This document shows positions 26,092 to 47,864 of a DNA stretch of 55,093 nucleotides, in pieces. The notes beneath the pieces were generated by a model. It saw only the letters and a program-made list of their open reading frames with translations, was not told the origin of the DNA and searched no databases. The translations under genes were made by a program, and so were the position numbers. Positions within the stretch are counted from its first letter, which is position 1. Each line of letters begins with the position of its first letter. The DNA is from Prorocentrum cordatum (taxonomy: Eukaryota): NCBI GenBank assembly GCA_963575745.1, contig CAUYUJ010000184.1, positions 62,001 through 117,093 of the forward strand, read 5' to 3'.

Positions 26092-26113
26092 TCCGTAGCC
26101 ATTTTGGCTCAAG
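26092..26113 (+). other. Complete dinoflagellate spliced leader (DinoSL) sequence
   Basis: TCCGTAGCCATTTTGGCTCAAG matches DCCGTAGCCATTTTGGCTCAAG exactly. Confidence 0.95.
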
Positions 26114-28207: not shown

Positions 28208-29733
28208 AGTCCAGTCAATCGTTCGCTTGTCGTTCGCTCGTTCAGTCAATCCCACGAGGATGCATTGCTTCAGAGCGTTCCACAGCGCTCTCAGAGCGTT
28301 CCAGGAAGCTCTTGCGCGGCCGTGGCGTCCGGTACTCTACCTCCGCCAGGCCCGCCGGCTCTCAGAGGTTCCCGCTGTGCCGTCATTCAGATTGATCACC
28401 GTCCTGCTCTTGTCTTTGCTCCGCCCCGCTGTAACGTCATCCAGATTGATGTGGCGCCCCGCCGGTGCGCAGGCGATGACGGTCCCCGAGCCCGTCACGC
28501 CCAGCGCGGCGCCCTGAAGCGGAGGGGGTCCTGCCGCGCCCCGCTCCGCCGCTGCGAGCCCGACCCTCCCTCGCGCGGGCTGGGGGGCACCGAGGGCCCA
28601 GATCTGCGACCACCTGCGAACCCAGACCCCTCCTCCTCCTCCTCCTGCTCCTCCTCCTCCTCCTCCTCCTCGTCGTCCTCCTCCTCCCCCTCGAGTAGGG
28701 CACGGAGGGCCCAGATCTATGACCCCGCGTGTCCAATGGACGCGGGGGTATCGGACACCCCCGCCGCTGGGGCTCACCCAGCTGCCGATGCCCTTCGAGT
28801 CGTGTTCTGTGTTCCTCGGACGTCTTACCTCCCCGGGTAGGGTGCACGCAGGTTGCTTGTGCCAGACCCCTTGGGTGTCGAGGACGAAAATCACGGCATT
28901 CGTCAGAAACAAATCGGCCTTGGGGAACCGTTTCTGGGCCTTGGTCCAATCTATGCGGGGTGGAGGCGGCGCAGAGGGAAGAGGCAGTGTGAGAGGAGGG
29001 AGGAGGTGGAGGATGAGTAGGGCAGTGATGACGACGACGGCAACGAGCGCGAACGTTATCATTTGTACGAGCAGGAGAGCGAAGACGAGGCGGAGACGGG
29101 GGAAGAAGGCCTCGGATGGACCCTTACCGGGAGCAGCCTCCTCCTTTTCCTCCTCCTTCTCCTCCTCCTCCTCCTCCTCCTTCGTTCCCACTCCCCCCTG
29201 CGCTTGCGTACCCTTCCCCTCGCCATTCCCTTTCGTTCCCGCTCCCCCTTGACTTTCTCACCTCTCCCCTCGCCCCTTCCTTCTCGCTCCCACTCCCCCA
29301 TGTCGTTCTGGCGCTCGCTCCTCCTCCTCCCCTCCTCCTCCTCTCCTCCCCTCTCCCCTCCACTCCTCCTCCTCCTCCTCCTCCTCCTCTCCTCCTCCTC
29401 CTCCTCCTCCTCCTCCTCCTCCTCCTCCTCCTCTCCTCCTCCTCCTCCTCCTCCTCCTCCTCCTACCCTCCTCTCTCCCTCCTCCTCCTCCCCTCCTCCT
29501 CCTCCTCCTCCTTCCTCTCCTCCTCCTCCTCCTCCTCCTCCTCCTCCTCCTCCTCCTCCTCCTCCTCCTCCTCCTCCTCCTCCTCCTCCTCCTCCCCTCC
29601 TCCTCCTCCCCTCCCCCCCTCCCCTTCCCCCTCCCCTCCTCCTCCCCCTCCCCCTCCTCCCCCCCCCGCTTTGCCCTCGTCCTCGCCTCCTCGGCCTCGC
29701 GCGCCGAGGCCCGGCCGCGGGAGTCGTTGCCTG

Positions 29734-29985
29734 ACTTAAAGGGTAGCTCTTTGGGAGATGTTGCAATATCGGGAGCATAGCTCGCGCGCCGTTGCCTTTG
29801 GCCCAAGGCACGCGCGCCCTATTTGCCCGGACACCGCGAGTGTTCGCTATGTGCTGGAAAGATCATTACATCGATCTTATCCTATCTTATCCGTCCACCC
29901 CTCATACTGTACCTTCACAGCAGAGCGATGGACGCAATTTGCCAGGCTATATGCCATATTTGAGCTACCAGGCTCACTTTCGACT
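29734..29985 (+). repeat. 5' LTR
   Basis: 4 mismatches vs 45446-45697 (~98.4% identity). Confidence 0.95.
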
Positions 29986-29997
29986 TGGTAGCGGAGC
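29986..29997 (+). promoter_or_regulatory. Primer-binding site, initiator tRNA-Met type
   Basis: TGGTAGCGGAGC immediately after the LTR; implies a tRNA 3' end GCUCCGCU-A-CCA, consistent with A1:U72 and close to the canonical TGGTAGCAGAG iMet PBS. Confidence 0.75.
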
Positions 29998-30391
29998 TGG
30001 CCGCACTCTCGTGTGGTCAGCTCTTGCTCTTCTTAGCCTCATATTCTTCGGCACGATCTTCGTGACTACCTACCACCCTGCGCCACCACTCCCAGTACGT
30101 TTACGAGGATCTATCCAAGAGCAAGAAGCAACACGAGAGGTACGACGTCTAGACGACCAGACTGGTACCATATACGCTTCATCATTGCGTTACCACCAAC
30201 CGCTCGGCAACGAGCTAACAGCGCAATACTTGAAGCAGGGGCGGGGAGACCCGCCAGACAGAGCGCCTCGAAGACTCGACAAGGCGCTACCCCAGCGCGA
30301 CAACGCGCATCATAACCGTCCTTCGTTACACATTCTCGGGCTAGTCGTTTTCGCTATTATATGGTTCGCGCTGGGGGCAGCAATCGGACAC

Positions 30392-31705
30392 ATGCGTCGT
30401 GGAGAAAACAGCACCGATGGGCAAACACATGGCCCATATTGGGACCCTCAAGGTAATGTGCCTTTTCGTGAGTAATCTACGAGGTCAACGCATGGCTCAA
30501 CGTTACAAGCGGACGTATGACGCCACAGGCCCAAGCGGCCGCAATACAACGCGGCCTGGGTGGCCTAGCGAGGACACTCGCCATGAGGGTACCGGCTGAC
30601 ATTATAAACTATGGTGCTGACATCGATGGGGTCCACACAGACCCAGTGACCTACATCATGTTTCTCCTAAGCATGAAGTTCGAACGCCTGGAAGATGAGC
30701 GACAGCTCAATTCCGGCACACAACTCATCGACTTCCACGTGCCTCACGGGGAACGAATCGATGTCACCCTTACCCGATTCGAAATGGCCCGGCTTGAGGC
30801 ACAATCGGTGGGATTCGACCTTCCCAACTTCCAACTGCTAACCACTATCTTATTCCGCGCCTTAGGCGTCGGCAACCAGCGAGCCACGCAACTCTTACAG
30901 CCACTCAATCACCAAATGCCCCGAACACAACAACAGTATGATGAGTTGCTGGAGAGGATGCGTTCGATAGGCCACCTATCCGAACGGTCTCCTGGTAACA
31001 TAGGATCTGTGTTTGGAAGGGGAAGGGGATCTGGTAGTGGAAATTTCTACACTACCTTGACTACTGAAGCCCAGCCTGGAAACGGGCCCTCAAGCATATG
31101 GGCCGATGACCCAGGAGAATCCACTGCGTTATTAGCAGGGGATCGATCACAACCAAGCTGGGCAACCAGCCCTCCTTCTAGAGAACCACAACCACACCGT
31201 TCTTTATGGGGGGAATCAAACCCCCTAACCGACGGTGTATCCACCTACTTGGGAGACGAGGATTTCGACTCCGGCACCGATACAGACACTATATCATCAG
31301 ATGGTGTTGAAGCTTTAGATTGGTCAGATATTATGAATATGGATAACGACAATCAGCGTGCTGAGCATTTATTCTGGTTATTACAACAGGCTAAACGAAG
31401 GTGGAGGAGGTTCACACGAAAACCAGTGCGTCGTGTTAGAAGGAGGATACGTAGAAGTTTTAAAGGAAAGGGTAAAGGTAAGCGAGGTCGTCGGAGGTTG
31501 AACGGACGAGGTATCGCGGCATTTCTCCAGAGGCTCTCAGATGAACAACATGATGAGATATTCTTTGGGGGAAAAGGCCGTAGTACGGGCCGTGGAGAGA
31601 CCTCAGGAAAAAGGCAAAGGAAGGCGGGGAAACCCGCGAGGTAGAGACGGCCAGGTTCTCAAATGCCATGAATGTGGTAGTTCCGATCATCTTGTGCGAG
31701 ATTGT
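30392..31705 (+). pseudogene. gag with CCHC zinc knuckle, frameshifted
   Basis: PYWDPQGNVPFRE / IYEVNAWLNVT..QAAAIQRGLGGLAR can be rejoined across a 1-nt loss at ~30475; second frameshift ~31590-31640; CHECGSSDHLVRDC at 31664-31705. Confidence 0.8.
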
Positions 31706-32792
31706 CCAGTGAAGGGAAATGGAAAGGGCAGGTCGACGGAAGTCCATTTTGGCTCAAGTGAACCATCCATTGAGTATCTGAGCCTCCAGGACTTTGAGGC
31801 TATGGAGCAGATATTTTTCACTTGGGTTGTTGGCATGGACAACGTCGACGAGCTCGAGGGGTATGGTCATGGATTGTACGCGTACTACCTCGAGTACGTC
31901 CGCCGGTTCGTTACGGGCAGTAACGAGCTCACTCCCGTGGAACACGGTACGCTGGGAAACCACCCTCTTCTTTTCTTCGACTGGATGTTCGGGAACCCAG
32001 GCAACATCATGGCCTACGAGAGTGACGACGAGGACACCACTATAGAGGCTTCGCCTTCCGAGGTTCAACGGAACCTCGAACCTCCGCCTGAAATCCCGCC
32101 TGGAAACAGGCCGTCTTTGATGGGAGAATATCCCCAGACCACTGAAGACTTAATTGAAATGGAGTCTCAGGCATTTGTTCGGGCCTTCATTGCAGGCGGA
32201 CCAGATACTCTGTTCATACCTCCTGGTTCGCTTGCTCCAGGCGAATATGGACCGCGCACCCTTTTGCAGACCCTCATGAGGATGCATGAGATACTTGTTA
32301 CTGGTTATCCTGAGAGTCAATAACATATCGAAGCTGACATTATGACAGAACAGGATACTGATGCTTGCGGTAGCTCAGAGCTGTTGTTGGCAGCTCTGAC
32401 TCTCATTGACAGCGTGCATCCTCAGGACGTGCAGAGACGCTTGATATGCTCCCGTGGTAGATGGCGTAATGCTCTAGAAATGGCTATTGCTATGCGCGGT
32501 CATGATCTTCCTCCGCCAGGATGGGGTCTCCAGGCGGTGGGAATGAGGCCAAACCATACGGCCATGCGCAACATTGCTGGGCAGCCTGTGCTCGGCAACG
32601 AGCCTGAGCCGACAACAGTGCCTCCTACACCGGGACAGCCGAGCGACGCACAGACGCCGGCTATGCAGGGAAACCTGCCTGTATCAGATACGCCAATGGC
32701 CATCATCATTGGTAGTTCGACATCAGAAGAAGTAGAAGGCGATGGTTGCGGGTTAGATGAGGATGACGTCACCATCCTCATGATGGACGTGA

Positions 32793-35700
32793 AATGGTGA
32801 GGAAGAGGTTGACTTCGATCCTGATGAGTCTGAATCATCATCACCATCGGCACACGCGCCATTTGCGCCGAGCTCCACCCAGCAGGGAGACCTGCCTCCA
32901 TCGGACGATCCATCTGGGATCGCACAGGAGCCTCCTCAGGCACCTCCACCGGGTGCCGCTCCTGCTGCTTCGGCAGCTTCCTCTGATGAGAACACCAGAA
33001 GATCTCGTCCCCATACGCGCGTCAGAGAAGAGCCACATCCACAGGCTCGACTTCCTCGTGAGTGGAGGCAGGCTGGCCCAAAAGAACACGCTCTCAGGAG
33101 AGGTGGCCAGCTACTTCCGCACAACGACCCAAGACGCCGAAAAGGGGAACACTCGGCCTTCGGCAAGGGCAACCCTGCCTATAGGGACAGTGATGGCAAG
33201 GCCATCCGCGGAGGCTATCAGCTTGCAACAAATATCCGCCGCCCTGAATTTCAAGAAGCGCGGACTCAGTTGCGAGATATTATCGCGGCGCGCAAGCAGT
33301 ATAGGCCTCACGCAGCATGCGGACCTTGTTCCCAGCCGTTCCAGAACCACGGGCCAGGATGCCCCGTTGGCAACAACGAAGGCCTGAGCCCCAACAGGGG
33401 CAAAACCCCTCATAAAGAGGGCCATCCGCAACTTATCCCGATGACACAAGAAGAGATTGCAGAAGTGAATCGTCGTCTCTGGATCTTGAGCCACTTGGAT
33501 CCGAAAGAAGAAGAAAAGCCTACCCCGGTTCCAAGGGGACTGGTAGCCATGACCCAGGAAGAGAAAGACGCGCTCTTCAGTCTTCCTAGTATGCGAGGAA
33601 ACTCGCCTGGCGTCTCTAGCCAGTCCCAACAACCAGAACCGACAATCAAGGATGAGGAAAAGGCTCAACGTGTGGCGGAGGACGAGGAGCGTATGCGGAC
33701 AGCAGAAGACCGCACTCGCGAGGCAACTCGCAAGATGTTGGAGGATTCTAGTAAGATCTACATGAAGAGGGCTACGAGGCCCCCACTCCCACTAACTTCG
33801 AAGGCCAAGAGTGGACCCCCGACACCTAAGCCGTCCTCGGTGCCGAAACCGAAGACGAGCCCTCAGGACCCTGGGCCAGACGTGCAGATGGAGGTGCCTC
33901 GAACTGAAACTCCGAGGCCGCCGATTGGCGCAACTCCTACACAAGCGTCTGTGCCCAAGCAGCAACCTCAGGACCCTATGGAGGAACGAAGACGCCCGCC
34001 TAGTCGCAGCAGTTCCATTGCGAAAAGGGCGGCAGCTTTCGAGCGCAGTGGGTATGCACCTGCGCCAGCTTCGCCTGTGGCGGCTCGTTCCAGGAGGTCC
34101 GATGAAGGTGCTATGTCGAGGGGTACCTGGGTGCCGAAGATCAGGGGCAGCGCCAGTCGCGCATCTCCGCGGGGAAACCCGCCAGGCGCTGCCGCCGCAG
34201 CTTCCTCCTCTTCTGGAGCCGCAGCCTCTTCAGCAACAGAGGTTCCGATGCGGGGAAACCCGCCAGTGGTTCAGCTGCACCACCCAGGTGACACGTCCTT
34301 CACTAGTGGGACTCCAAATGTGATCAGGGATAGACTTGCGCTTCGGAAGCTCCCACCGATACGCTCGGTGGATGAGACATTCATGAAGGAATGCAGGAAA
34401 GCTGGAATCCTTCCCACATCCAATGATATTCTCAAACAGCTGAGCAAAGCTCTCAGCAGGATATGCAGACATGCGCCAGACAAGCAACACAATCCTGTGT
34501 GGCGCTTGGAATCTTTCGATGATCATGATGGTTGGGTTAACCTAGTGGAACTCGTGGACCGTTATCCGTGGAACACAGGTCAATCAAGACACGCTGGGTA
34601 TAATCCAAGATATGACGAGGCCAAGATCATCAACGAGCATCTATGTAGGCGCTCGGTTGACCAACTAGCAGCCATCATGATGGCAGTTGTTCATGTCCGT
34701 GAACCAGACGGAGAAGAAAAACAGCGCCTACAGTTCAAGGTGTTGATGCGGGACTCCGGAGAGCCCGCTATCTTCGTCCGCGCCTCTCAGGGGCATTCAT
34801 GGGAATTGAAAGCTCCATGGTCGCTGTACAGCTACATTGTGCTGTGCGACCAACCTGCCGGGAGACCGGCCCCATACCCCGATGTTGCTATGCATGGCAC
34901 TCGATGGCACGCCTTCGAAGGGATTATGTGGCACGGCCTGTCCTGTAGACCTGAGCATAACACGAAGAAAAAGGGGACAGGCCGGTCGCGCATTCACTTC
35001 GTGCCGACAGTTCGCCGCCGTGCCGTGAACAGTGGGTGGGACCCAGACTCAGACATCATCATCTTCGTAGATTGGCGTGAGGCCATACAAGATGGTATGA
35101 AGTTCTGTTGGTCCGATAACGGAGTCCTCTTGTCCGAGGGAGATAACGGTATCATTGAACCATATTACATCTCTCATGTAGAGGACCTGTCCACAGGAAG
35201 GCAATGGCGTAATCCAGAGTATCTGGGGAGCCGCCATGCGCGAGTCTCTGTCGCAACGATGTCTGCTCCTGACAGGTGGGCTGAAGTTGGTACTTCCAGC
35301 GTTAAGTACCAGTGGTCCCGAGACCAAGGGGGCGTTGACCCCCCTATGGGCTACCTCCACAGGGAAGTTGGGGACCACTACAGCCCTACCCAGCTGGGAA
35401 ACCAGCCTGAGATCCATCGGATCTTCATGATTACCGAGAGTGAGGCCGGGAGCGCGGCTCCAAGCCGTGCCCCAAGCCAAGGGCCTAGTGCCGTGTCTTG
35501 GCAGGCCATCAGTACCTCGGACCTGGATCAGATCGCAGCCGCGCTGAACCCTGACCAGGTAGAACAGCTGGCGGACAGGTTATACCAGCAGGATCCCTGG
35601 GCCGCAGGCCAGGGAGCAATGTCCGCTATGGCTGCGAGAAATCGTCAGGCCATGCAGGGAAACCTGCCTACAAGCGGACCTGCTCGGTTTGAACCAATGC

Positions 35701-38573
35701 ATGGAAGCCCTACTCAGAGCATGCACACTCCAAGGGGCATGACTCCATTGGGCACACCACCGGCACAATCCCCATTCGGGACACCTGTCCGCCCTGCCAC
35801 AAACGGCGCTCTCATGGAGAGGAAAGCTGCGGCTAGGGCTGAACACAGCACAGCCCTCCTCAACATGATGCCGCCCGGCACGCCAACGAGTCAGCAGGGA
35901 AACCTGCCTGGCACACCAAGCCACCACAGGGCGGGTGTACCTGACGACTATCGCTCAAGAGTGGCGGCCGCGGTGCAGCAGGTGCAGAGCCATAATCTGC
36001 CTCACCCAAGTGGGCAGAGGTGGAGGCCAGCCTGGTCCTGGGAGCCTGAGGGTCCCAACCCACGGGATCCTGCTCGGCAACGAGCCTTTATCCCGGCGTT
36101 CAATGCCCATCCGAGCATGTCTCAGGGCCAGAGGCCACCACCAGCGCAGATGAACCCGCCATTATACCCTGATGGGTCAAGGGTTCCGAACAAATTTGTT
36201 CGTGAATTGGCGGATCAGATGCATAACCTCACTAATGTGCGCTGCAGTGACCATTCCATGTACCCGCACATGGCCTTCATGCCTTCACCGACATCACCAG
36301 AGGTGGTTGTCCAGCCCACTGCCCATTCAATATCGTCTGGCAGTAGGGGCGTGCCTGACTACATCAGGCAGACGCACCACACTCAGCAGGCATGCTTCAG
36401 GAGAAGGCAGGCGGTGCAAAGCGTACGGGATCAGTCACGTGCAGCTGCACTTGATGTGGTGAGGAACAGGGGCTCACCTTTGCGAGGAAACTCGCCCGCC
36501 GTGACTCCTACCACTTCCATGCCAAATGTCGAAGTGCAGGAGGTGCTGAATCCAACGGGGACACCCCCATCAGCCTTCATGCCCTCCGAGACGGTACTGG
36601 AGAGGCAACGGCGGGTATATCCCAGGGCAGCAGACGTAGAGGTCTTTACTGGGATGGAAGATACCTGCGCGGTATGCCTCGAAGAATTTCAGCCCAGGGA
36701 TAGTGTTTACCGCCTGAGGTGCAATCACCTATTCCACGAGGGATGCTGGAATTCTAATGTGGTGGGCCACGTTGCAAATCAGCGTGAGGGAGATCCCCAG
36801 CAGCCACCATGTGCTATCTGTCGAGCACCTGGCATTATAGCATCATCCTTCCCATGGACCGGCTCCTTTAGTCAGACTCCTGAGCAGTCAGCGAGAGAGC
36901 TGCGGGAGCTGAGGAGCATGGTGGAGGAGATGACGTCTAGGATGCTAGCTATGCAGACAGCTCCGTCACAACAGCAGGGATACCTGCCTGAAGAGGTAAG
37001 GCCGCCTATGGAAACGGGATATTTTGATCAGCTTATCCCGATGACGGCGCCTCAGCAGGGAAACCTGCATGATACTCCTCAGATGTCTCCCCAGAGTGGA
37101 GGCGAGGCTGAGATGTCACTGGGCCCTGATCAGCTGCGTGAATTGCGTGTACGACATTTTCAGAATCAGATGGATAATACGCACACAACATTTATGCTGG
37201 ATGCCAACAATCCTGAAACTGATAGTCCGTCGCTAGACTTATCAGAATCCTCAGTGGCGTCAGCAGCAACAGCAGCCAGGGCCGTCAATATCTCAGCGAC
37301 GAACGAGGAGTTCGAAGAGTGGCTGCGGTACCGGGATCACATCACGAACGAGGGGCTGCAAGACATCGCCCTTCACTCGTACCTAACGTTGATAAGGCGC
37401 ACGACCCGCGAGCAGTATATGAGCATACGTGATGAGTATGCCAACTGGCGGGAGGAGCGTGGCGATCACGCCCAGCACGTGTCGCACTTCCAGTACATTG
37501 ACCTGGCACGCATGGCCGAGAGCGAGTCGCATGCCAGTGTCATGCGGGGTAACCCGCCAGGGAGTACGACTGTGCCGCGGGGAAACCCGCCTACCGACAC
37601 AGCCGACACTTCAGAAACTGTGCACATCAAGCAGCCGAGTAAGACGTTCTTGGATGATGGTGGAAATTCCATACTCATCGACGTCGGTTCGAAGATCAAC
37701 ATCATGGGCGAGAACACGAGCCGTAAGTTCGTCCAGGCTGCCGAGGCACATGGCCGTACTTGTACGTTCGAGCCCCGCTCTCGTTTGAATATCAACGGAG
37801 TGGGAGAAGGGTCGGCCCCAGCGGATACCGTAGGCACATTCAGTATTGCCTGCGAGTACCAGGGGTCGGCCCAACTCGATTCATACAAGACGAACATTGT
37901 GTCAGGCTGTGGCAAGGACCTGCCAGCCATCCTAGGTCTCGATAGTATGCAGGACAAACGCACGATCATCGTGCTTGAACGAGGCCAGGAGAAGCTGATA
38001 TTCCCTGGTAAGGGGCAGGTCAAAATGGAGCTCCCAGAAGGCTCCAAAATCATGCCGACGACAAAGTTGCCGTCAGGGCATCTGTCGATCAGGTGTGATT
38101 GTTTTGGAGCTGCGGGGCAACCCGCCTCGAGCTCAAGCAGCACGTCCTTCCAGACAGTGCTGACAGGCGAGCCGACCCCGGCGCAGGAGCGCAAGCAATT
38201 GCAGGGAAACCTGCCCCAGGGGTTGATGGAGACGCTCGCCAAGGCCACCATGCGAGGCGACAACATCGACGATCTCGAGACGTTCGATTGTTTTGTTGCC
38301 AGGACACTGGCCCTGCATGGTGGTAGTGTACCCATGGACGCTGTACAGTCCCGCCGTAAGATAGTGATGGGATACACTAACCGTGAATTGCATACGGTCA
38401 GCGACGCTAGGTCCAAAGGCGTGCTGAAACAGCTGATGGATAATCCATCGATGCTGACAGCATTTGCGGAGCAATCCGCCTCTGAGGCCACGGCGCGCTG
38501 CAGTGCTGAGCTCCAGCATCTGAGGGAAGCCCAGATGCTGGCAGATATTGTAGGCACATCTTCTTCATCTTGA
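32793..38573 (+). CDS. Copia polyprotein segment: Tpt1/KptA 2'-phosphotransferase + RING-H2 + aspartic protease
   Basis: Frame open from 32793 (track ORF 33270..38573); Tpt1 motifs at 34428-35190; RING at 36666-36824; protease ILIDVGS (D at 37680) and LPAILGLD. Confidence 0.85.
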   Translation, partial: NGEEEVDFDPDESESSSPSAHAPFAPSSTQQGDLPPSDDPSGIAQEPPQAPPPGAAPAASAASSDENTRRSRPHTRVREEPHPQARLPREWRQAGPKEHALRRGGQLLPHNDPRRRKGEHSAFGKGNPAYRDSDGKAIRGGYQLATNIRRPEFQEARTQLRDIIAARKQYRPHAACGPCSQPFQNHGPGCPVGNNEGLSPNRGKTPHKEGHPQLIPMTQEEIAEVNRRLWILSHLDPKEEEKPTPVPRGLVAMTQEEKDALFSLPSMRGNSPGVSSQSQQPEPTIKDEEKAQRVAEDEERMRTAEDRTREATRKMLEDSSKIYMKRATRPPLPLTSKAKSGPPTPKPSSVPKPKTSPQDPGPDVQMEVPRTETPRPPIGATPTQASVPKQQPQDPMEERRRPPSRSSSIAKRAAAFERSGYAPAPASPVAARSRRSDEGAMSRGTWVPKIRGSASRASPRGNPPGAAAAASSSSGAAASSATEVPMRGNPPVVQLHHPGDTSFTSGTPNVIRDRLALRKLPPIRSVDETFMKECRKAGILPTSNDILKQLSKALSRICRHAPDKQHNPVWRLESFDDHDGWVNLVELVDRYPWNTGQSRHAGYNPRYDEAKIINEHLCRRSVDQLAAIMMAVVHVREPDGEEKQRLQFKVLMRDSGEPAIFVRASQGHSWELKAPWSLYSYIVLCDQPAGRPAPYPDVAMHGTRWHAFEGIMWHGLSCRPEHNTKKKGTGRSRIHFVPTVRRRAVNSGWDPDSDIIIFVDWREAIQDGMKFCWSDNGVLLSEGDNGIIEPYYISHVEDLSTGRQWRNPEYLGSRHARVSVATMSAPDRWAEVGTSSVKYQWSRDQGGVDPPMGYLHREVGDHYSPTQLGNQPEIHRIFMITESEAGSAAPSRAPSQGPSAVSWQAISTSDLDQIAAALNPDQVEQLADRLYQQDPWAAGQGAMSAMAARNRQAMQGNLPTSGPARFEPMHGSPTQSMHTPRGMTPLGTPPAQSPFGTPVRPATNGALMERKAAARAEHSTALLNMMPPGTPTSQQGNLPGTPSHHRAGVPDDYRSRVAAAVQQVQSHNLPHPSGQRWRPAWSWEPEGPNPRDPARQRAFIPAFNAHPSMSQGQRPPPAQMNPPLYPDGSRVPNKFVRELADQMHNLTNVRCSDHSMYPHMAFMPSPTSPEVVVQPTAHSISSGSRGVPDYIRQTHHTQQACFRRRQAVQSVRDQSRAAALDVVRNRGSPLRGNSPAVTPTTSMPNVEVQEVLNPTGTPPSAFMPSETVLERQRRVYPRAADVEVFTGMEDTCAVCLEEFQPRDSVYRLRCNHLFHEGCWNSNVVGHVANQREGDPQQPPCAICRAPGIIASSFPWTGSFSQTPEQSARELRELRSMVEEMTSRMLAMQTAPSQQQGYLPEEVRPPMETGYFDQLIPMTAPQQGNLHDTPQMSPQSGGEAEMSLGPDQLRELRVRHFQNQMDNTHTTFMLDANNPETDSPSLDLSESSVASAATAARAVNISATNEEFEEWLRYRDHITNEGLQDIALHSYLTLIRRTTREQYMSIRDEYANWREERGDHAQHVSHFQYIDLARMAESESHASVMRGNPPGSTTVPRGNPPTDTADTSETVHIKQPSKTFLDDGGNSILIDVGSKINIMGENTSRKFVQAAEAHGRTCTFEPRSRLNINGVGEGSAPADTVGTFSIACEYQGSAQLDSYKTNIVSGCGKDLPAILGLDSMQDKRTIIVLERGQEKLIFPGKGQVKMELPEGSKIMPTTKLPSGHLSIRCDCFGAAGQPASSSSSTSFQTVLTGEPTPAQERKQLQGNLPQGLMETLAKATMRGDNIDDLETFDCFVARTLALHGGSVPMDAVQSRRKIVMGYTNRELHTVSDARSKGVLKQLMDNPSMLTAFAEQSASEATARCSAELQHLREAQMLADIVGTSSSS
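34428..35190 (+). other. Tpt1/KptA (RNA 2'-phosphotransferase) domain
   Basis: LSKALSRICRH, DGWV, KQRLQ, VRASQGHS, HGT, GLS, GRSRIHF, SGW, IFVD, SDNGVLLSEGDNGII. Confidence 0.9.
36666..36824 (+). other. RING-H2 zinc finger
   Basis: CAVCLEEF..LRCNHLFHEGCW..CAICR (C3H2C3). Confidence 0.9.
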
Positions 38574-39569
38574 AGATGGCAGGGCGACGTCGCCCCCTCG
38601 TCGTCTTGCCTGTTGGCTGAAAAGCCGGGGGGTAACAAGGACAGCGGGGTAACCTGCCTTAGTAAGAGGGCTTTTGTCATTGAAGATACGAGGGAGGCAT
38701 GTGCCGACCTCCGCACGCGAGGTTATATTTGTGATCGTATTTCCCACAACGAACTTATGACAAGCGTGGGCACAAACTACATAGGTGCGGTGATCAGTGG
38801 AGATTACACTCTCATATGGATCAGTACTCCGGGTGACTGGTACGTAAGAATTCCAGGAAAGAGAGTGGCCCCACATTGGTCACGTATCCAGAACCAATTA
38901 ACAAAAGCCAAGAAACCCCGTATGAAGATCATAATATTTGGTCCCCCAGGATATGTTTGGAAGTTATCTCCAGTACGTGATACTCTGGAAGATCTAAAGT
39001 TGTCAGTAATACGGATGCGTTTGTGTCATTTCGGTATTCGGTTCAATATGCAAGACAGTACACCAAGTGGTACTTATATGCAGGTAGCATCATCAATACC
39101 GATTAGCTCGAAGCTGTGGGCATGTACCTGTAAGCAGGCAATACCACAACATGTGTTGGATTGGTACGGCCATACAGTGCGGCGTGCTGAATGGCGAGCT
39201 CAGACACGTACTACACTCATCCGTCACTTGAACGACAACATCCTGGGGAGCACCACCGCGCACGGAAACGTGCCCGTATACCTAAATACGTATGCACGCA
39301 CAGACCAGAACACCCGTCACTACGTGACGACTAATAAGGGAGGACCAAAATGGTCTGAAGTCATCCGACGTGTAACAATCAACCTGGATACCAATGCGGT
39401 TATTCAGGATATCTCGGTTACCGATCAACCAACAGGATATGATTGGCATGCACCATTACCTACAGGGGTTGCCAACATCAGTACTCGGTTGCATTGGCAA
39501 CCCGAGACTGGTCTTGCTCGGAAGCGAGCCGACTCAATCACCACAGAAACATCGACGCGTCATCATTGA
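38574..39569 (+). pseudogene. Continuation of the Copia polyprotein between an in-frame TGA (38571) and a frameshift (~39540)
   Basis: Same frame as the upstream ORF; protein-like composition; overlaps the start of the downstream pol frame. Confidence 0.6.
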
Positions 39570-42500
39570 TGACTGTTCTCTCCCCCTCCCGACTCTGGCG
39601 ATTGACGCATGTACCCATTCAACCATGACAATGAGTACACAGACCGACGAACAAGACGAGCAAGCTTTACCCGCTGAGTCGCGTATAAAACAGAAGAAGA
39701 GGCTCAAAGCCGAAAAGGAAGCAGGCATCAAGCCTCGCCGCATTAAAAAGCACGTTGAAGACGGAAACGATGATTGCGGCGACGAATTGTCAGGACTCGG
39801 ACAGGATCTTATGGCAACCTGGAGTACTGACGTCCCTGTTGAGCTGATAAGCTCCGACGAGGACGATGACCTGTTCCTTACCCTCCCCACATCTATGCCC
39901 GACACACACGCTAACATATACAGCATAGTTGCTACACTATGCTATGGTCATAACAACTGCGTGGATATGTTGGAGCTTTGTGGCGGTGAGGGTGGCATCT
40001 CAGAGCTTGCCTTCTCAAGGGGACTTTCCTCAGGCGGCAACTTGGACAATACTACATATGTCGACCTGGGAGACCCCTCGGTGCAGCAGGTTATAGACCA
40101 TTACTTTGCTATATGCTACGTACGAGTTGCCATACTGCAACCCAGCTGTCGCACCACAGGACCACCATCCTATTACAACCACAAAGTCAACTACAACACT
40201 TGGGAACAGCACCATAAAGAAGACTTACCACACATAACTTATTGTGGTAAAATTGCTGCAACCCAAGATGACTCTCAGAGGTGGTTTATACGCGAACAAC
40301 CTACAGGAACATGGGTAGATGATATTTCTCCATGGAAAAAGCTTGCCAACCGACCACGCATTACAACCGTGCGCATTGACCAATGCGCTACGGGACTTAG
40401 AGACACGACTGGTGAATATATTAAGAAGTCGACAAATATCACCAGCAACGACGAGACAATTCTTAAACCATTTGAGCGACTCAAGTGCAACGGTCAGCAT
40501 GTGCACGCACAACCGTGCAATACCGAGCTTTCACTGGCACAAAAATACACCCGACGACTGCAGTCTGCCTTCGTGGAAGCTGTATATCTGGCGAAAGCCA
40601 TTGACACCACGCGCGGAAACGCGCCTATAAGTACCGCACATGCTTATCCTACAGACCTTCCCGATCAAGCTGAACCAGGCGAAGGTATGAGACGCATCGG
40701 TGATCGTATCATCCCAAAGGTGGCTACTTGCCCGGCATGCATCGACAACGTCCGAAAGGACAGTCCCAGCCATAACAGAGACCCTACGCAGTGTAAATAT
40801 CATGATTCCATCTCTGTATATTGGCCATGTCCAGCATGTCAGAGGGATCTTACGAGAAGCAAGGGTGTTAAGAACCACCTCGATACCGAACCTGGTAAAC
40901 GTCGTTTTGCTGAACCATTTAAATTACCAGACGACCACGACCCCGAAGGCAGAACCGTGCCAGCTTGGTGGAAACCCTTACCTAAACCTGGTGAGGGCCA
41001 AGCCTCAGCTTCAGGTGGCCGTCAAGGCGCACACGCCAGGCCACCACAACCACGATCCTTCGGCAACGTCGATCCGACATCCGGTGCCAGCAGCTACGAC
41101 ATGCTACGAGACGCCCCCGAGCGTGGAAACACGCCTTCTGCGTCTTCTAGCGAAGTGCCACAGGTAGCGGCCCGCCGCGGCCGTCTACAAGGCGTACCAC
41201 CACCTCCAGACGCAGTTAACACAGGGGACCAACTACGGAGAGCTACAAGGAACCCTCTTGCCTCCACCGGCTCTGGGGCTCCACGACTACCCGACTGGGC
41301 GAGATTCGACATCCAACACAGTCTACAGAGTCTCCGTAGTCACGAACCTCATGTCGTGAAAAAGGAACTCCGAAAACTGCATCTGCGATGGCATCATGCG
41401 AAGGAGCCAAAGATGAGGCTAATCCTCGAAAAGGTGGGGCTTGATAACGTTCGGCTGAACATGATCAAGGAAGTCTGTGATACCTGTCGGGAATGTAGAG
41501 CATGGGAACGTCCAGGAAACTCAACACTACCATCGGTAAGCCTTCCTGGTAACTGGCTCGATGAAGGGGAAATGGGCCTCATGTTTTACAAGAAACGGAC
41601 CATATTTCATATTATGGATCGTTGTATTCGCCTGGCAGCAGGCCTAGAAATTTCCGACAGAGAACGTGACGCTATCATCGACGCCTACCACTATTGCTGG
41701 ATTGCCTATCACGGACCCTTCATAGTTTTATTCTCAGACGGAGAAGGCGCCCTGAATAACGATACCGCTAAAACCATGATAGCCAATAAGGGCACGGAAC
41801 TTCGTATCCGAGCACCTGGCCAACACGCGACTTCAATTGAGTCACGAAGCGGCATTCTCAGAGGCGTCCTCCACATGATTGAGGAAGAATTGAATAGACA
41901 CAACATCCCTGTTGTATTCACTAGAGTATTGGCGGAAGGCATCTTCGTTACCAATGCGTTTACGTTTTATAACGGAGTAGTGCCATATCAGGCACACACA
42001 GGACGTCAGCCCTCCTTCCTTCCTGATCTCGATACCCTTGACTTTCCCAAGGGACCCGAGACTTCAGGACACGAACGAGAACGTCGTGTAAGGGAAGTCA
42101 GCCTAGAAGCTATAACTCAGGCTACTGCTGTGGCCAAGACAAATCGGGCTCTTAGGGCTAAGACGACTCCTGATGGTGCTCGCCTCTACTCATCAGGGGA
42201 TTTGGTCGACTACCACCGACCTACTGCCACCAAGGACGACCATGGAGGCTGGAATGGCCCATTCCCGGTGATCCGAAATGTGCCTGAAAGAGGACATATT
42301 GTTGTCAAGGCAGGATCTCGTGAGGTAATTGTGATGTATCCTGATGCTCGTCACACACTATACATCGAATGTCTCCTCACACGGGAACTTGGCATGGATA
42401 ATATGGCCATGCAAGCCGTCCTTGCTTATGTGGCACACCTCAGCGCAGGGAAACCTGCCAAAGTTTTCGGGTATATTCCCGATTACAAGGGAAACCTTAA

Positions 42501-45075
42501 TCTGTCAGACGACAGCAAGTTCCACCCGCGCGTGCACTTAGCACTACAGTATCTCGTACGAAATTACTTCCGAGTAGAACATGTAGTAGCAGTTCGATTG
42601 GCTAAGAGTGTGTCAAGCCTATCTGCAGTAAAGTACGCCACCGGGTCTACGCTGATCCACTATGACAACGACATCAGCCCGGCGTTCCACTATTACGAAT
42701 GTGTGGGCACTGGCTTAAACATTTCTCAGATCACTGGTAGCACTCACTCCAGACTGATTCAATGCTTGACTTCACGTGTCCCTTCCTTAGGATTTCACGA
42801 CGATTTGGCTAAATATCAGCATCCAAGCAACACGTCTGGAGAATACGTGTCGCCTGGAAACAGGCCTTCTCCAGACACACCAGATGCTTCATCGCCGCGC
42901 GAAGGCCGTCTGTCGACAATCTATGAGGAAAATGAGGAACACCATATCGAAGCTATGATGCTGGAAGAGTGGTACGACGAGCTACGTATGGACCTTCATC
43001 CTACGACGATTACCGATGATTATCTTTATTGCGTCCCAACAACTATGCTGCCCGACCAATGTGTTTTGGTTTCAGCATTTGTGGACGAAGATGATATTAC
43101 ATCATCAGATATGCTCGGAGACGAGCCGAAATCATGTGAGTCCTGTCTAGTATCTCTTTGTTCAAACACAACCGACGAGAGCTACTCTCTAGACAGTGAT
43201 GAATACGGTCCTTACGTTGAACTATGCTTTACATCAGAAATGTCAAAAATAGTGTTGGATCAGACTCAACTTGCACAGCTCGATACCGATATGGTCGCAA
43301 CGATGAGAGTATATGTACCCTCTGCTGCTAAACGTGCTGTGGTTGTCAAAGAAGATGATCTACTGACCAAAGCCGACATAGCAGCACATCCAAAGGAGGT
43401 TAGTGAAGCCTTATATACTGAGCTCAAAATCTGGATTGATAACCGATGCTTTGAGATGTACGATTTGTCCAAAGCTTCCAACATCATGACGTCCAGATAC
43501 GTATACAAGTGGAAGTTCGTAAAGATGGGTACCGAGAGCGTTAAAACCATTCGTCTCAGACTGGTCCTTTGTGGATTTATGGATACTGAGGCTTTTGGTG
43601 TGGAAACATTCTCGGGAACCGCCCGAAGGCAGCCCCAACGACTCCTGGCAAGTGAAGCGGCATGTCATCCAGAGTGGATCTTAGCATCCATGGATATCGA
43701 TAAGGCGTTCTTAAAGGGTTTGACCTATGAGGAACTTGCCCATGCCACCGGCGAGGAAACTCGCATGGTTTGCTTTACTCTTCCACCAGGAAGCGCTCAG
43801 GTACTTCGTACCTTACCCGGCTTCTCATCCTACGACGAAAGTCGACACTGTCTTAGATGCCTCAAACCAGGAACGGGTACTAAGGACGCTCCAAGAGCGT
43901 TCTCTCTCAAACTTGGTACGACCACACGAGCTATAGGACTTACACCGACCAGCTACGACCCTGAATTTGAATTCAGCCAAGACCTTCTGACGGCCAAACA
44001 TGTCGATGACATTAACATGACAGGTCTAGAGAAAAATATAGACGACTATGTACAACGTGTCGAAAAGGTATTTGGCAAATGCAAGCTCAACAAGCACACA
44101 TATACGAACTGCGCCGTTCGCTACACTAAGAGTGATCAGGGAGATGTGATCATGGACCAGGACGAGTATATTAAACAACTACGTCCTATCACACACCCAG
44201 AACTCACAGGAGCGGCGGCCGACGCCAAAGCCACGAAACTCATTACCGACATGTTCGTCAGCCTGCGAGGAGCCCTCGCCTATGCCCTTCTTACCCAAAT
44301 CTGGCTTATGGTATATGTGGTCTCTCCTCAGAAAATTCAAGAGCCCACCAATTTGCAAGTCAGACGTTTGAACGCTGTGACGCGAAAGCTGATCAGCAGT
44401 CCGAAACGCATCACCTTCCCTCGGATGAAGCCGACGAATGAAGTTGACATCCATAGCGATTCGGGGTATCGGAAGCTTACCGGGGAGGAGGATGACGAGA
44501 CCAAGGGCTACGGCATACGCGGGGCCAACGTACTACGGCGAGGAAACTCGCCCCAAGGCAAGTCCGTCGTTCACCTCTGTGACGGACTATGCAAATCACA
44601 CCGATTACAGGTGAGGTCCAGTTATGCTGCGGAGGCACTTGCAGCCGCACATAACCTTGATGAGTGTTACCCTACGCTCATTACTCTCCACGAGCTTAAG
44701 GCAGGGGCTTTGACTCCACGACAACTACGAGACATGCGTGAAGTTGGAGGCCTTGCTATCAAAGTCTCTCTTACCATAGACGCCGAGTCCGTCTACAAGT
44801 CTTTATCAAGCAGGGATCTCAAAATACCTACAGAACGGACTCTGCTTGGACATATCAGCTGGATACGTGAGCTCATGGATATAGGTATAGTACATAATGT
44901 GCAATGGTGTGATACTAGGGATATGACCGCAGATGGGCATACAAAGGGAAGCATCGATCGGGAGCTGCTTCTGGAAGTGATGTCAGGCACTCAGTCATTT
45001 AAGTATGACGTGAAGCAATTTGTTCCCTTTCGGGGTCCCGAGGACAGAGACAAACCTAAGTCTAATCAATTTTAG
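39394..45075 (+). CDS. Copia pol: cytosine-methyltransferase-like domain, integrase, RT, RNase H
   Basis: MLELCGGEGG..QPSC..REQP..DQC..KKST (~39961-40590). INT: HLRWHH..CDTCREC, FSDGEG, IESR. RT: SRYVYKWK, RLRLVLCGF, DIDKAFLKG, KDAPRAF, HVDD (43999-44010). RH: SDSGY, SSYAAEA, IDAES, MTADGHTK. Confidence 0.92.
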   Translation: MRLFRISRLPINQQDMIGMHHYLQGLPTSVLGCIGNPRLVLLGSEPTQSPQKHRRVIIDDCSLPLPTLAIDACTHSTMTMSTQTDEQDEQALPAESRIKQKKRLKAEKEAGIKPRRIKKHVEDGNDDCGDELSGLGQDLMATWSTDVPVELISSDEDDDLFLTLPTSMPDTHANIYSIVATLCYGHNNCVDMLELCGGEGGISELAFSRGLSSGGNLDNTTYVDLGDPSVQQVIDHYFAICYVRVAILQPSCRTTGPPSYYNHKVNYNTWEQHHKEDLPHITYCGKIAATQDDSQRWFIREQPTGTWVDDISPWKKLANRPRITTVRIDQCATGLRDTTGEYIKKSTNITSNDETILKPFERLKCNGQHVHAQPCNTELSLAQKYTRRLQSAFVEAVYLAKAIDTTRGNAPISTAHAYPTDLPDQAEPGEGMRRIGDRIIPKVATCPACIDNVRKDSPSHNRDPTQCKYHDSISVYWPCPACQRDLTRSKGVKNHLDTEPGKRRFAEPFKLPDDHDPEGRTVPAWWKPLPKPGEGQASASGGRQGAHARPPQPRSFGNVDPTSGASSYDMLRDAPERGNTPSASSSEVPQVAARRGRLQGVPPPPDAVNTGDQLRRATRNPLASTGSGAPRLPDWARFDIQHSLQSLRSHEPHVVKKELRKLHLRWHHAKEPKMRLILEKVGLDNVRLNMIKEVCDTCRECRAWERPGNSTLPSVSLPGNWLDEGEMGLMFYKKRTIFHIMDRCIRLAAGLEISDRERDAIIDAYHYCWIAYHGPFIVLFSDGEGALNNDTAKTMIANKGTELRIRAPGQHATSIESRSGILRGVLHMIEEELNRHNIPVVFTRVLAEGIFVTNAFTFYNGVVPYQAHTGRQPSFLPDLDTLDFPKGPETSGHERERRVREVSLEAITQATAVAKTNRALRAKTTPDGARLYSSGDLVDYHRPTATKDDHGGWNGPFPVIRNVPERGHIVVKAGSREVIVMYPDARHTLYIECLLTRELGMDNMAMQAVLAYVAHLSAGKPAKVFGYIPDYKGNLNLSDDSKFHPRVHLALQYLVRNYFRVEHVVAVRLAKSVSSLSAVKYATGSTLIHYDNDISPAFHYYECVGTGLNISQITGSTHSRLIQCLTSRVPSLGFHDDLAKYQHPSNTSGEYVSPGNRPSPDTPDASSPREGRLSTIYEENEEHHIEAMMLEEWYDELRMDLHPTTITDDYLYCVPTTMLPDQCVLVSAFVDEDDITSSDMLGDEPKSCESCLVSLCSNTTDESYSLDSDEYGPYVELCFTSEMSKIVLDQTQLAQLDTDMVATMRVYVPSAAKRAVVVKEDDLLTKADIAAHPKEVSEALYTELKIWIDNRCFEMYDLSKASNIMTSRYVYKWKFVKMGTESVKTIRLRLVLCGFMDTEAFGVETFSGTARRQPQRLLASEAACHPEWILASMDIDKAFLKGLTYEELAHATGEETRMVCFTLPPGSAQVLRTLPGFSSYDESRHCLRCLKPGTGTKDAPRAFSLKLGTTTRAIGLTPTSYDPEFEFSQDLLTAKHVDDINMTGLEKNIDDYVQRVEKVFGKCKLNKHTYTNCAVRYTKSDQGDVIMDQDEYIKQLRPITHPELTGAAADAKATKLITDMFVSLRGALAYALLTQIWLMVYVVSPQKIQEPTNLQVRRLNAVTRKLISSPKRITFPRMKPTNEVDIHSDSGYRKLTGEEDDETKGYGIRGANVLRRGNSPQGKSVVHLCDGLCKSHRLQVRSSYAAEALAAAHNLDECYPTLITLHELKAGALTPRQLRDMREVGGLAIKVSLTIDAESVYKSLSSRDLKIPTERTLLGHISWIRELMDIGIVHNVQWCDTRDMTADGHTKGSIDRELLLEVMSGTQSFKYDVKQFVPFRGPEDRDKPKSNQF

Positions 45076-45445
45076 TCTGTCCTTGTTGCCCTCGCGGTCC
45101 AGTTTGCCAGCACGGGCGCCTACTATAAAGGCGCCCCTCTAGCTGCTCGGAAACGAGCCTTATATTTCACGCCTGGCAACGAGCCGGCTTCGTACAACTC
45201 AGGCTCTTTGCCTTAATACACATTTGCTTGGTGAGGTATGGCCTAATTTTGGCTTACCTCTAACTGAGCCGATAGCCCTTCATTGTTTGAAGGGGCTGTC
45301 CTGTATTTGCGTGAAATACTTTGCGAGGAAACTCGCCTTACAGTCTGGTGTTTGACCAGACTGTACGCACTGTTTTCTTTTCTTTGCAAACAGTCGTGCG
45401 CGCGATCTTTGCGTGCGACTATGCTCTCCGTCTCCTCCCCTCCCG

Positions 45446-45697
45446 ACTTTAAGGGTAGCTCTTTGGGAGATGTTACAGTATCGGGAGCATAGCTCGCGCG
45501 CCGTTGCCTTTGGCCCAAGGCACGCGCGCCCTATTTGCCCGGACACCGCGAGTGTTCGCTATGTGCTGGAAAGATCATTACATCGATCTTATCCTATCTT
45601 ATCCGTCCACCCTTCATACTGTACCTTCACAGCAGAGCGATGGACGCAATTTGCCAGGCTATATGCCATATTTGAGCTACCAGGCTCACTTTCGACT
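45446..45697 (+). repeat. 3' LTR
   Basis: Matches 29734-29985; followed by TSD GCCTG. Confidence 0.95.
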
Positions 45698-47546: not shown

Positions 47547-47578
<32 letters not shown>

Positions 47579-47864
47579 GGAGGAGGAGGAGGAGGAGGAG
47601 GAGGAGGAGGAGGAGGAGGAGGAGGGGGAGGAGGGGGAGGAGGAGGAGGAGGGAGGAGGAGGAGGAGGAGGAGGAGGAGGAGGAGGTCTCGCCTGGATCT
47701 GCGCGACAGCCCGTTCCGCCGGGCCTCCCGGGAGCCCGCGACGGCGGCAGCCTCCCGGGGAGCCGCGAGGCGTCGCCTGCCCACCGCCCTCTGCTGGACC
47801 TTCCGGGAGCCCACGAAGGTGGCGACGGTGCGCAGTTGGGAGCCTTCCAGGCAGCCGCCCAATA

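Follow-up and report, generated by a model that had tools for sequence, protein, structure and literature searches.

The window analyzed here is a stretch of 55,093 nucleotides from a contig of the dinoflagellate Prorocentrum cordatum (assembly GCA_963575745.1, contig CAUYUJ010000184.1, positions 62,001 to 117,093 of the forward strand). Positions 29733-45696 of this window are occupied by a Copia-like long terminal repeat (LTR) retrotransposon of about 16 kb, and a long open reading frame (ORF) of this element, ORF C, carries at 34428-35190 (+) a complete Tpt1/KptA RNA 2'-phosphotransferase domain of the eukaryotic TRPT1 type. The features of the element are listed below in order of position.

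29728..29732, + strand: left target-site duplication (TSD) TGCCT, identical to the 5 bases at 45697-45701
29733..29984, + strand: 5' LTR, 252 bp, direct repeat with 45445-45696
29986..29997, + strand: primer-binding-site-like sequence TGGTAGCGGAGC, one base past the 5' LTR, starting with TGG, the complement of the tRNA 3' CCA
30202..45336, + strand only (sense): 35 hairpins of consensus GCNNG-GNRA-CNNGC-C, from pattern counts, simulation and folding
30472..31644, + strand: ORF A, gag-like, a stop-to-stop frame matching no Pfam family
31502..32323, + strand: ORF B, with a CCHC zinc knuckle at 31661-31708 (PF00098 zf-CCHC, 21.4 bits against a cut-off of 20.8)
32793..38573, + strand: ORF C, 1926 codons, stop-free, with Tpt1, RING-H2 and protease-like regions; TGA at 38571-38573
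34428..35190, + strand: Tpt1/KptA domain (PF01885, envelope 34437-35141; AlphaFold2 model, Foldseek)
36660..36833, + strand: RING-H2 finger (CAVCLEEF...CNHLFHEGC...CAICR), matching Pfam RING families
37620..37946, + strand: aspartic-protease-like region (LIDVGS ... ILGLDS, 37674-37946), recognized by eye only
38574..39569, + strand: ORF D, a conserved domain without a family, in the frame of ORF C past its TGA, aligning with the N-termini of proteins P0156 and P0157
39376..45075, + strand: ORF E, 1899 codons, the next frame after ORF D, with a conserved domain (39811-40803) and integrase-like, reverse transcriptase and RNase H-like regions
41311-42183, + strand: integrase-like region of ORF E (HHCC and D,D,E by eye; nearest named Atlas clusters)
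43444-44085, + strand: reverse transcriptase of ORF E (RVT_2; motifs DIDKAFL and HVDD)
44446-44946, + strand: RNase H-like end of ORF E, recognized by eye only
45445..45696, + strand: 3' LTR, direct repeat of 29733-29984
45697..45701, + strand: right TSD TGCCT, matching the left one

The region 34428-35190 was translated without a stop over 254 codons, and the Pfam search of this translation returned PF01885 (PTS_2-RNA) at 87.2 bits (E 1.8e-24; gathering score 26), the match extending over profile positions 5-177 of 177 and corresponding to residues 389-624 of the long-ORF protein P0002 (window 34434-35141). A sequence-only reading of this locus, made before any database search, had proposed a complete Tpt1/KptA domain, a proposal for which the presence or absence of a PF01885 match was decisive and which this strong match upholds. 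The same reading had placed an Arg-His-Arg-Arg catalytic tetrad and QGHS, HGT and NGV motifs in the domain, all of which were found at the positions claimed: CRH at domain residues 13-15 (34464-34472), KQR at 98-100 (34719-34727), QGHS at 121-124, HGT at 156-158, GRSRIH at 185-190 (34980-34997) and SDNGV at 229-233. Both in HMMER alignments to human and mouse TRPT1 and in a MAFFT alignment with cellular Tpt1s, R14, H15, R100 and R186 fell in the tetrad columns. This tetrad is reported to be essential in vivo and in vitro, with two of its arginines stabilizing the transition state of step 2 (PMC6333775), and is likewise described in PMC10415124. The H-H-h core of ADP-ribosyltransferases and the HGT motif, as described in PMC8120803, were represented by H156-G157-T158, H190 (in RIHF) and V233 (in SDNGV).

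At the structural level, the only PDB sequence matches of the domain were human and mouse TRPT1 (7yw3, E 2.2e-10; 7yw2, E 1.6e-8). The AlphaFold2 model, built from a 99-row alignment, reached a mean predicted local distance difference test (pLDDT) score of 88.7 and a predicted template modeling score of 0.82, and displayed the two-lobe fold of Tpt1 enzymes, with a winged-helix RNA lobe and an ADP-ribosyltransferase lobe for nicotinamide adenine dinucleotide (NAD+). All 22 Foldseek matches of this model in the PDB at E<=0.001 were Tpt1/KptA proteins (top match 7yw3, E 2.2e-13), with template modeling scores of 0.72-0.74 when normalized to human and mouse TRPT1, the next matches being catalytic domains of PARP enzymes at E>0.01. 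The N lobe contained a lineage-specific insertion of about 50 residues, seen in the alignment and forming two extra helices in the model.

The assignment of the surrounding polyprotein to Copia, already made in the sequence-only reading, was supported by the LTR pair (4 mismatches in 252 positions), the 5-bp TSD, the primer-binding-site-like sequence, the position of the integrase-like region upstream of the reverse transcriptase, which is the domain order of Ty1/copia elements, and the similarity to RVT_2 (30.7 bits in the window copy, just below the cut-off of 31.6, and 32.5 bits in the 67%-identical P0156). That reading had also described Tpt1 as lying in frame with a RING finger and a protease. 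The RING finger was corroborated by Pfam (zf-RING_11, 33.9-36.5 bits; zf-RING_2, 26.7-30.8 bits; both above their cut-offs), and the protease-like region was in frame as stated, yet its identification is by eye and had no Pfam match. In total, Pfam returned nothing for protease, integrase, RNase H, ORF A or the N-terminus of ORF C; the first three appear too divergent for Pfam families. The Atlas clusters nearest to the integrase-like region carry PF00665 rve (score 0.94, 181 shared features). Past the RING finger, the only Pfam row at E<=1 was VPg, at 14.6 bits against a cut-off of 27. A DELTEX-type ligase was considered for the RING finger and rejected: the DTC domain expected after the RING was not found, and only RING families matched.

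Some elements of the replication machinery were harder to place. No tRNA genes were detected in the window. The 30 bases before the 3' LTR (45415-45444) were pyrimidine-rich (GCGACTATGCTCTCCGTCTCCTCCCCTCCC; …CTCTCCGTCTCCTCCCCTCCC), without a polypurine tract.

A dinoflagellate host was supported by a perfect 22-base dinoflagellate spliced leader (TCCGTAGCCATTTTGGCTCAAG, as given in PMC6050394) at 26092-26113 (+), following a (CACAGA)n-type microsatellite. As no GT follows it, this copy is more likely a retrogene relic than a spliced leader RNA gene. The element itself was flanked by a long (CCT)n tract on the left (29100-29700) and, some 1.5 kb away on the other side, by a (GGA)n tract (47250-47690).

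In order to place the domain among its relatives, 1.84 billion cluster representatives were searched, yielding 609 matches of the Tpt1 domain at E<=0.001. The top match, P0004 (45% identity), belongs to a 90% cluster that also contains P0154, a non-representative protein of 1379 residues from a 4295-base contig of another assembly. P0154 was collinear with ORF C, to which it aligned across 1390 columns with 35% identity, and repeats its order of Tpt1 (PF01885, 51 bits), RING finger and beginning of the protease-like region. Identity between the two proteins was 47.5% in the NAD+ lobe of Tpt1, 28% in its N lobe, 57% in the RING finger and about 40% elsewhere, and the start of the protease-like region was the best-conserved stretch (20 of 27 aligned residues). 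The second half of the element also has relatives: ORF D and ORF E were fused in P0156 (2159 residues, 67% identical in the searched part) and in P0157 (1954 residues, 43%), and the 90% cluster of P0156 comprised five members of 2159 residues, each from its own contig (up to 16,640 bases).

Among the 150 best matches, at least 19 (P0004-P0010, P0013, P0015-P0017, P0019-P0021, P0041, P0047, P0059, P0080 and P0106) were classed as transposable-element (TE) type, recognized by an SC-x3-4-N-x-K/R insertion before the fourth tetrad Arg or an FDD-x-DGW insertion in the N lobe. When only the sequences covering each motif were counted, the first tetrad Arg was kept in 7/7, the His in 6/7, the third Arg (in K-x-R) in 13/13 and an intact HGT in 12/14; the fourth Arg was kept in 11/14, and the three exceptions lose all similarity from there onward, in a frameshift-like manner. 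In a quick maximum-likelihood tree (130 rows, 217 columns, after a coverage filter had removed 24 of 154 sequences, including most short TE-type fragments), five labeled TE rows grouped with P0017 and P0059 against 123 other Tpt1s, on a branch with a support of 98 in the Shimodaira-Hasegawa-like approximate likelihood ratio test; these seven also have the SC-x3-4-N-x-K/R insertion in common. The nearest match outside the TE type, the tandem-repeat Tpt1 P0011, was only about 30% identical to the domain. The resemblance of the donor loops to those of TRPT1 suggests a probable eukaryotic origin of the domain, the tree pointing to no particular donor lineage. Searches of other datasets were less productive: a metagenome scan for the domain yielded seven loci at 25-35% identity, of which only L001 looked TE-type; word-indexed protein searches for long Tpt1-bearing polyproteins, at lengths of 446-2000 and 971-3093, gave none at E<=0.001; and none of the 27 pattern matches in viral contigs was confirmed.

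The closest labeled Tpt1 and ORF2 fragments (P0005-P0010, P0021, P0106, P0160 and P0161) carry a EukProt label of a culture of the green alga Pyramimonas, and those with the Tpt1 domain (P0005-P0010, P0021 and P0106) were 60-86% identical to the window. The disagreement between this label and the dinoflagellate spliced leader could be due to contamination, mislabeling or horizontal spread. One of these sequences, P0007, showed an ORF2 stretch (…AGKPAKVFGYIPDY) joined directly to the Tpt1 N lobe, as in a chimeric contig or a rearranged copy. Among matches of the cellular type, tandem Tpt1 units (two to four per frame) were observed in P0011 (776 residues) and P0012 (466 residues), together with a fusion of SPRY, kinase, tRNA-ligase CPD and Tpt1 domains in P0044 (1700 residues) and a NUDIX-Tpt1 fusion in P0030.

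The abundance of the element in environmental data was also evaluated. Near-identical 31-mers of ORF C were present in 20 listed runs from 15 studies, mostly marine metagenomes. Logan contigs of four runs (X1, X5, X9 and X2) were placed on positions 29000-46500 at >=85% likeness, giving 43,150, 14,746, 912 and 2,296 pieces, respectively, in all identity bands. Summed word depths, which are not copy numbers, were as follows, ORF1 being the part of the element whose polyprotein includes Tpt1.

Tpt1 bin 34256-34839: X1 1035, X5 3304, X9 10.6, X2 138
Tpt1 bin 34840-35423: X1 903, X5 3507, X9 8.1, X2 133
Adjacent ORF1 bin 33672-34255: X1 1448, X5 2589, X9 13.1, X2 86
Adjacent ORF1 bin 35424-36007: X1 1521, X5 2526, X9 15.1, X2 93
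Left flank 29000-29583: X1 1.2, X5 0, X9 0, X2 0

Each of the four runs covered the Tpt1 bins, whose summed depth was 0.6-1.5 times that of the neighboring ORF1 bins. The Tpt1 segment therefore belongs to a repeated family and is not peculiar to this locus. Taken together, the collinear P0154, the at least 19 TE-type clusters and the high-copy family argue against the one-off capture evolving neutrally that the sequence-only reading had left as its alternative. Related elements have kept the domain for long, so that it probably helps the element to copy itself. Over all bins of the four runs, summed depth peaked in a GGGGCCTCTTGGGG-like minisatellite at 45936-46500.

The same contigs revealed the state of the window copy. 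A GA insertion after 39506, rare in X1 and accounting for about 40-45% of the depth in the other three runs, links ORF D with ORF E; the absence of a single base at 32792 (27-100% of the depth) connects the open frame 32324-32800 with ORF C; and a one-base deletion at 31608, present in some copies, would join ORF A to ORF B. A further frame-splitting indel of the window copy with respect to many family members lies at position 30474. Despite its young LTRs, the window copy is probably not autonomous, because of these frame-splitting indels.

The active site of the domain deviates from that of its closest characterized relatives at one position. Eukaryotic TRPT1 is reported to have a flexible donor loop with a conserved Ser-Gly-x-Arg (SGxR), in which Arg165/170 holds the NAD+ diphosphate (PMC10415124), and the equivalent residues are Arg139 in the Clostridium enzyme and Arg137 in the Runella enzyme (PMC6333775). 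In the window this loop reads S202-G203-W204-D205 (NSGWD, 35028-35042): the Ser-Gly is kept, and the arginine that binds the NAD+ diphosphate is replaced by Asp205. The arginine is retained in six TE-type sequences (L001, P0013, P0059, P0017, P0019 and P0080), and its loss is therefore a derived trait of the branch to which the window belongs. In the work on the Runella enzyme, the R137A mutant accumulated the ADP-ribosylated intermediate, was inactive at 0.1 mM NAD+ and barely supported yeast growth (PMC6333775). Bacterial and archaeal Tpt1s, reported as active, replace SGxR altogether (PMC10415124), so that this arginine does not define the family and Asp205 is compatible with activity.

Considering these results, the domain is best read as a putative active enzyme that acts on the element's own RNA or cDNA, an interpretation to which we assign a probability of about 0.55. 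Made at Gag-like abundance within the ORF1 polyprotein, Tpt1 would enter the particle and there act, in an NAD+-dependent manner, on phosphates carried by the nucleic acid of the element itself. The favored reaction would free the packaged template RNA of internal 2'-phosphates and so make it readable; such 2'-phosphates might be those left by a Trl1-type RNA ligase, and inside the particle they would be beyond the reach of the host enzyme. Within this interpretation, 2'-phosphate removal is placed slightly ahead of 5'-phosphate capping, because all four tetrad residues are kept, including the third arginine that chiefly serves step 2, and because, among the enzymes covered in PMC6182162, all Tpt1s tested carry out the 2'-PO4 reaction and only a subset caps 5'-P ends.

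Several observations weigh against this interpretation. The activity and the expression of the domain are both predicted from its sequence, and we know of no source of 2'-phosphorylated RNA in the cycle of the element. No RNA run was found among the listed runs with ORF C 31-mers. Compared with many others, the window copy has disrupted frames, lacking 2 bases at 39506 and having one too many at 32792. The 29 coding differences, a biased sample drawn from the 40 best-supported of 1966 differences, were divided into 14 synonymous and 15 non-synonymous, a weak hint of constraint. Compared with P0154, the whole Tpt1 domain was 40% identical, no better than the rest of the polyprotein (about 40%). 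The retrotransposon context is established solely for the window family and P0154, and the 250 residues upstream of the domain in L001 had no significant similarity to the window (E 0.35). Lastly, the donor-loop arginine has given way to Asp in P0005 as in the window, to Val in both P0154 and P0004, and to His in P0020; this residue is functionally important, and its replacement lowers the confidence in activity.

A possible, though not a likely, alternative is that the domain works as a one-step ADP-ribosyltransferase, capping the 5'-phosphate ends of linear cDNA (or RNA) and thereby shielding them from exonucleases or end-joining. Such a cap would not interfere with integration, for which 3'-OH ends suffice, and gap repair would remove it along with the 5' flaps. 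This would be consistent with the capping of RNA or DNA 5'-monophosphate ends by a subset of Tpt1s (PMC6182162) and with the 5'-end ADP-ribosylation reported for mammalian TRPT1, the closest solved relatives of the domain (PMC12678800; PMC10415124), and a weakened donor loop slows step 2, as in the accumulation of the intermediate in Runella R137A (PMC6333775). The placement in ORF1 would, in addition, imply delivery into the particle. The pattern of conservation points the other way: mouse and human TRPT1 mutated at the third tetrad Arg are reported to retain about 20-50% of 5'-P ADP-ribosylation while 2'-phosphotransfer is dead (PMC10415124), and this arginine, largely dispensable for capping, is kept in all 13 TE-type sequences that cover it. 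Moreover, the loss of the NAD+-binding arginine would harm capping too, and it would have to be assumed that the cDNA ends of the element are 5'-phosphorylated substrates.

Somewhat less probable is a pseudo-enzyme, that is, an RNA-binding module (through the winged-helix N lobe) or an NAD+/ADP-ribose-sensing module of the Gag-side polyprotein that works without catalysis. The replacement of the donor-loop arginine by Asp, Val or His in the window's branch, the insertion with its two extra helices in the N lobe, and a conservation of the domain no higher than that of the surrounding polyprotein would all agree with such a role. On the other hand, the tetrad, the HGT, the second His (in IHF) and the N-G-V are all intact, the NAD+ lobe is the better-conserved half of the domain (47.5% vs. 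28%), and bacterial and archaeal Tpt1s are reported to be active without SGxR (PMC10415124), which together argue for a catalytic domain.

An action directed at the host, as counter-defense or manipulation (of host RNA or DNA ends, of a host RNA mark or through NAD+ consumption) and possibly in concert with the RING-H2 finger as a ligase, is improbable. Both full-length relatives have retained Tpt1 along with RING, and picorna-like RNA viruses are reported to have acquired PTS_2-RNA as well (PMC11316551), which shows that the domain is useful to unrelated selfish replicons; no host target or defense system is known, however. The weakest explanation, that a host Tpt1 came to lie here as a passenger through recent capture, nested insertion or mis-assembly and evolves neutrally, is very hard to sustain, since only the frame disruptions elsewhere in the window copy and the lack of RNA runs among the listed runs speak for it, while against it stand a single frame of 1926 codons within an LTR pair with TSD, the same architecture in the independently assembled P0154 (35% identity, at least 1379 residues without a stop), the separation of its clade from 123 other Tpt1s, thousands of repeat contigs covering the domain in four runs and an identity of only about 30% to the nearest match outside the TE type.

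Besides its coding capacity, the element contained an array of short hairpins within and between its ORFs. Perfect GNRA hairpins with a 5-bp stem were counted 35 times on the forward strand of the internal region and once on the reverse strand, while the roughly 39 kb outside the element held four and three, respectively; in 300 simulations with an order-2 Markov model, the count averaged 0.57 and never exceeded 3. The sequence GCRNGGNRACNYGC had 26 matches against 0.52 expected, 24 of them in the element and all 24 on the forward strand. When complementarity was not required, 36 GC-NN-G-GNRA-C-NN-GC sites were found on the forward strand, in 33 of which both variable pairs were Watson-Crick (about two expected), and one of the three remaining sites had a G-U pair. 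The stems comprised 12 variants, with the loops GAAA (22), GCAA (8), GAGA (4) and GTAA (1), and the hairpin was the minimum-energy structure in the 6/6 folded, at -8 to -14 kcal/mol. Hairpins occupied all three codon phases and non-coding parts of the element, and one of them (34857-34870) lies within the Tpt1 coding region.

The array was also visible at the protein level, where 13 in-frame copies of the peptide [RQ]-G-[ND]-x-P are the coding shadow of GCNNG-GNRA-CNNGC, usually followed by C. For hairpins in this phase, residues 1 and 4 of x-G-[ND]-x-P must be codon-complementary, the allowed pairs being R-S/P/A/T, Q-L, H-V/M, L-Q/E/K and P-W/R/G. Complementary residues were found in 15/15 motifs of the window's two long ORFs, 11/11 of P0154 and 7/7 of P0156, against 3/11 in a control of 44,373 residues; P0157 has no such motif. 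At aligned sites, RGNAP in the window corresponded to RGDTP in P0156, and RGNTP to HGDVP, from which compensatory double changes in the stem can be deduced via the encoded peptides. The array is thus probably a selected, strand-specific RNA structure, for which the evidence is strong, and its most likely role would be that of multiple Gag-binding or packaging and folding signals of the genomic RNA. Rfam had no match in the window, and a literature search for such an array yielded nothing beyond general work on dispersed packaging signals (PMC6281560). This strand-specific set of covarying GNRA hairpins within coding sequence represents a clean case of RNA structure overlaid on protein coding.

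A more elaborate and quite doubtful reading would combine these components: Tpt1 might ADP-ribosylate 5'- or 2'-phosphates of the element, the adjoining RING-H2 finger might ubiquitylate the ADP-ribose, and the GNRA hairpins might serve as recognition and packaging handles for Gag and for this module. DELTEX ligases are reported to ubiquitylate ADP-ribose on ADP-ribosylated nucleic acids (PMC10810221). If true, this would be the first retroelement using nucleic-acid ADP-ribosylation in its replication.

Two conserved domains lie between ORF C and the integrase-like region. Directly after the TGA of ORF C there is a palindrome of 12 bases, GGCGACGTCGCC (window 38571-38590), and the predicted start of P0156 is a Met whose aligned position lies a few codons past this TGA (38571-38573). 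The domain of ORF D, found also in residues 1-330 of P0156, has the motifs …WISTP-DW-VRT…GPPG…RLCHFG-KF…PSG-Y and resembles, by eye, a diverged duplicate of the domain that follows it. The latter, of about 330 residues (ORF E residues 140-470, 39811-40803), was 69% identical in P0156 and 45% in P0157, and includes the motifs ELCGGEGGIS, QPSCR and REQP, which by eye we take to recall motifs I, IV and VI of C5 DNA methyltransferases (DNMTs). Searches lent this idea no support: PF00145 was not matched at E<=10, a phage tblastn search gave no match, the Atlas score was only 0.79 to a cluster with 35% PF00145, and the AlphaFold2 model was of low confidence (pLDDT 37.9, 3-row alignment) and added nothing in favor of a DNMT. 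A profile of ORF2 relatives had no match among PDB sequences.

Tpt1 is known as the clean-up enzyme of tRNA splicing, and for organisms that lack this pathway its substrate is still being sought. A long-kept and apparently active Tpt1, as judged from its conserved residues, in a retrotransposon would provide a natural system in which the enzyme must serve a replicating RNA or DNA genome. Removal of 2'-phosphates before reverse transcription, or capping of ends with ADP-ribose, would each, if true, be a new step in the life of retroelements and would give a handle on the role of Tpt1 outside tRNA splicing. In full-text literature searches of main texts, no report of a Tpt1/KptA/PTS_2-RNA domain in a retrotransposon was found; the TPT1 of the single matching preprint was an unrelated tumor protein.

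Compared with known systems, the element shares with Ty1/copia its LTRs, 5-bp TSD, tRNA-type primer-binding-site-like sequence, CCHC Gag, integrase-like region upstream of an RVT_2-like reverse transcriptase and RNase H-like end. It differs from Ty1/copia in its size of about 16 kb, in having at least three extra conserved regions (Tpt1, RING and the two pre-integrase domains), in the lack of a purine-rich tract before the 3' LTR, in its 35 GNRA hairpins and in a protease, an integrase and an RNase H that Pfam does not detect. With cellular Tpt1/TRPT1/KptA the domain has in common the two-lobe fold, the tetrad and the QGHS, HGT, IHF and N-G-V motifs, as well as the donor-loop Ser-Gly of TRPT1 (7yw3, 7yw2), sister lineages having the full SGxR; unlike TRPT1, it is embedded in a retrotransposon polyprotein, is only 25-27% identical to the TRPT1 structures and shows the N-lobe insertion of about 50 residues, an SC-x-N-x-K insertion and the donor-loop Asp. 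The dicistro- or picorna-like RNA viruses EPlV2 and PVLADV1, as described in PMC11316551, also have a Tpt1 domain in the polyprotein of a selfish replicon, termed an 'alien' acquisition, but there it lies between VPg copies of a replicase polyprotein, and reverse transcription, LTRs and RING are absent. Another close parallel is found in the DNMT-carrying retrotransposons that de Mendoza et al. (2018, PMC5890265) describe from Symbiodinium and charophytes, which likewise captured and kept a nucleic-acid-modifying enzyme of the host. In that work, the captured enzymes are DNMTs and the Symbiodinium Copia elements are stated to have no DNMT domain, whereas here a Tpt1 is found in a Copia-like element; the terms Tpt1, KptA, PTS_2 and phosphotransferase have no occurrence in PMC5890265. 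An LTR retrotransposon with a captured and kept host enzyme is thus of a known kind, while Tpt1 as the captured enzyme appears to be new, and the case strengthens the view that dinoflagellate retrotransposons collect nucleic-acid-modifying enzymes from their hosts.

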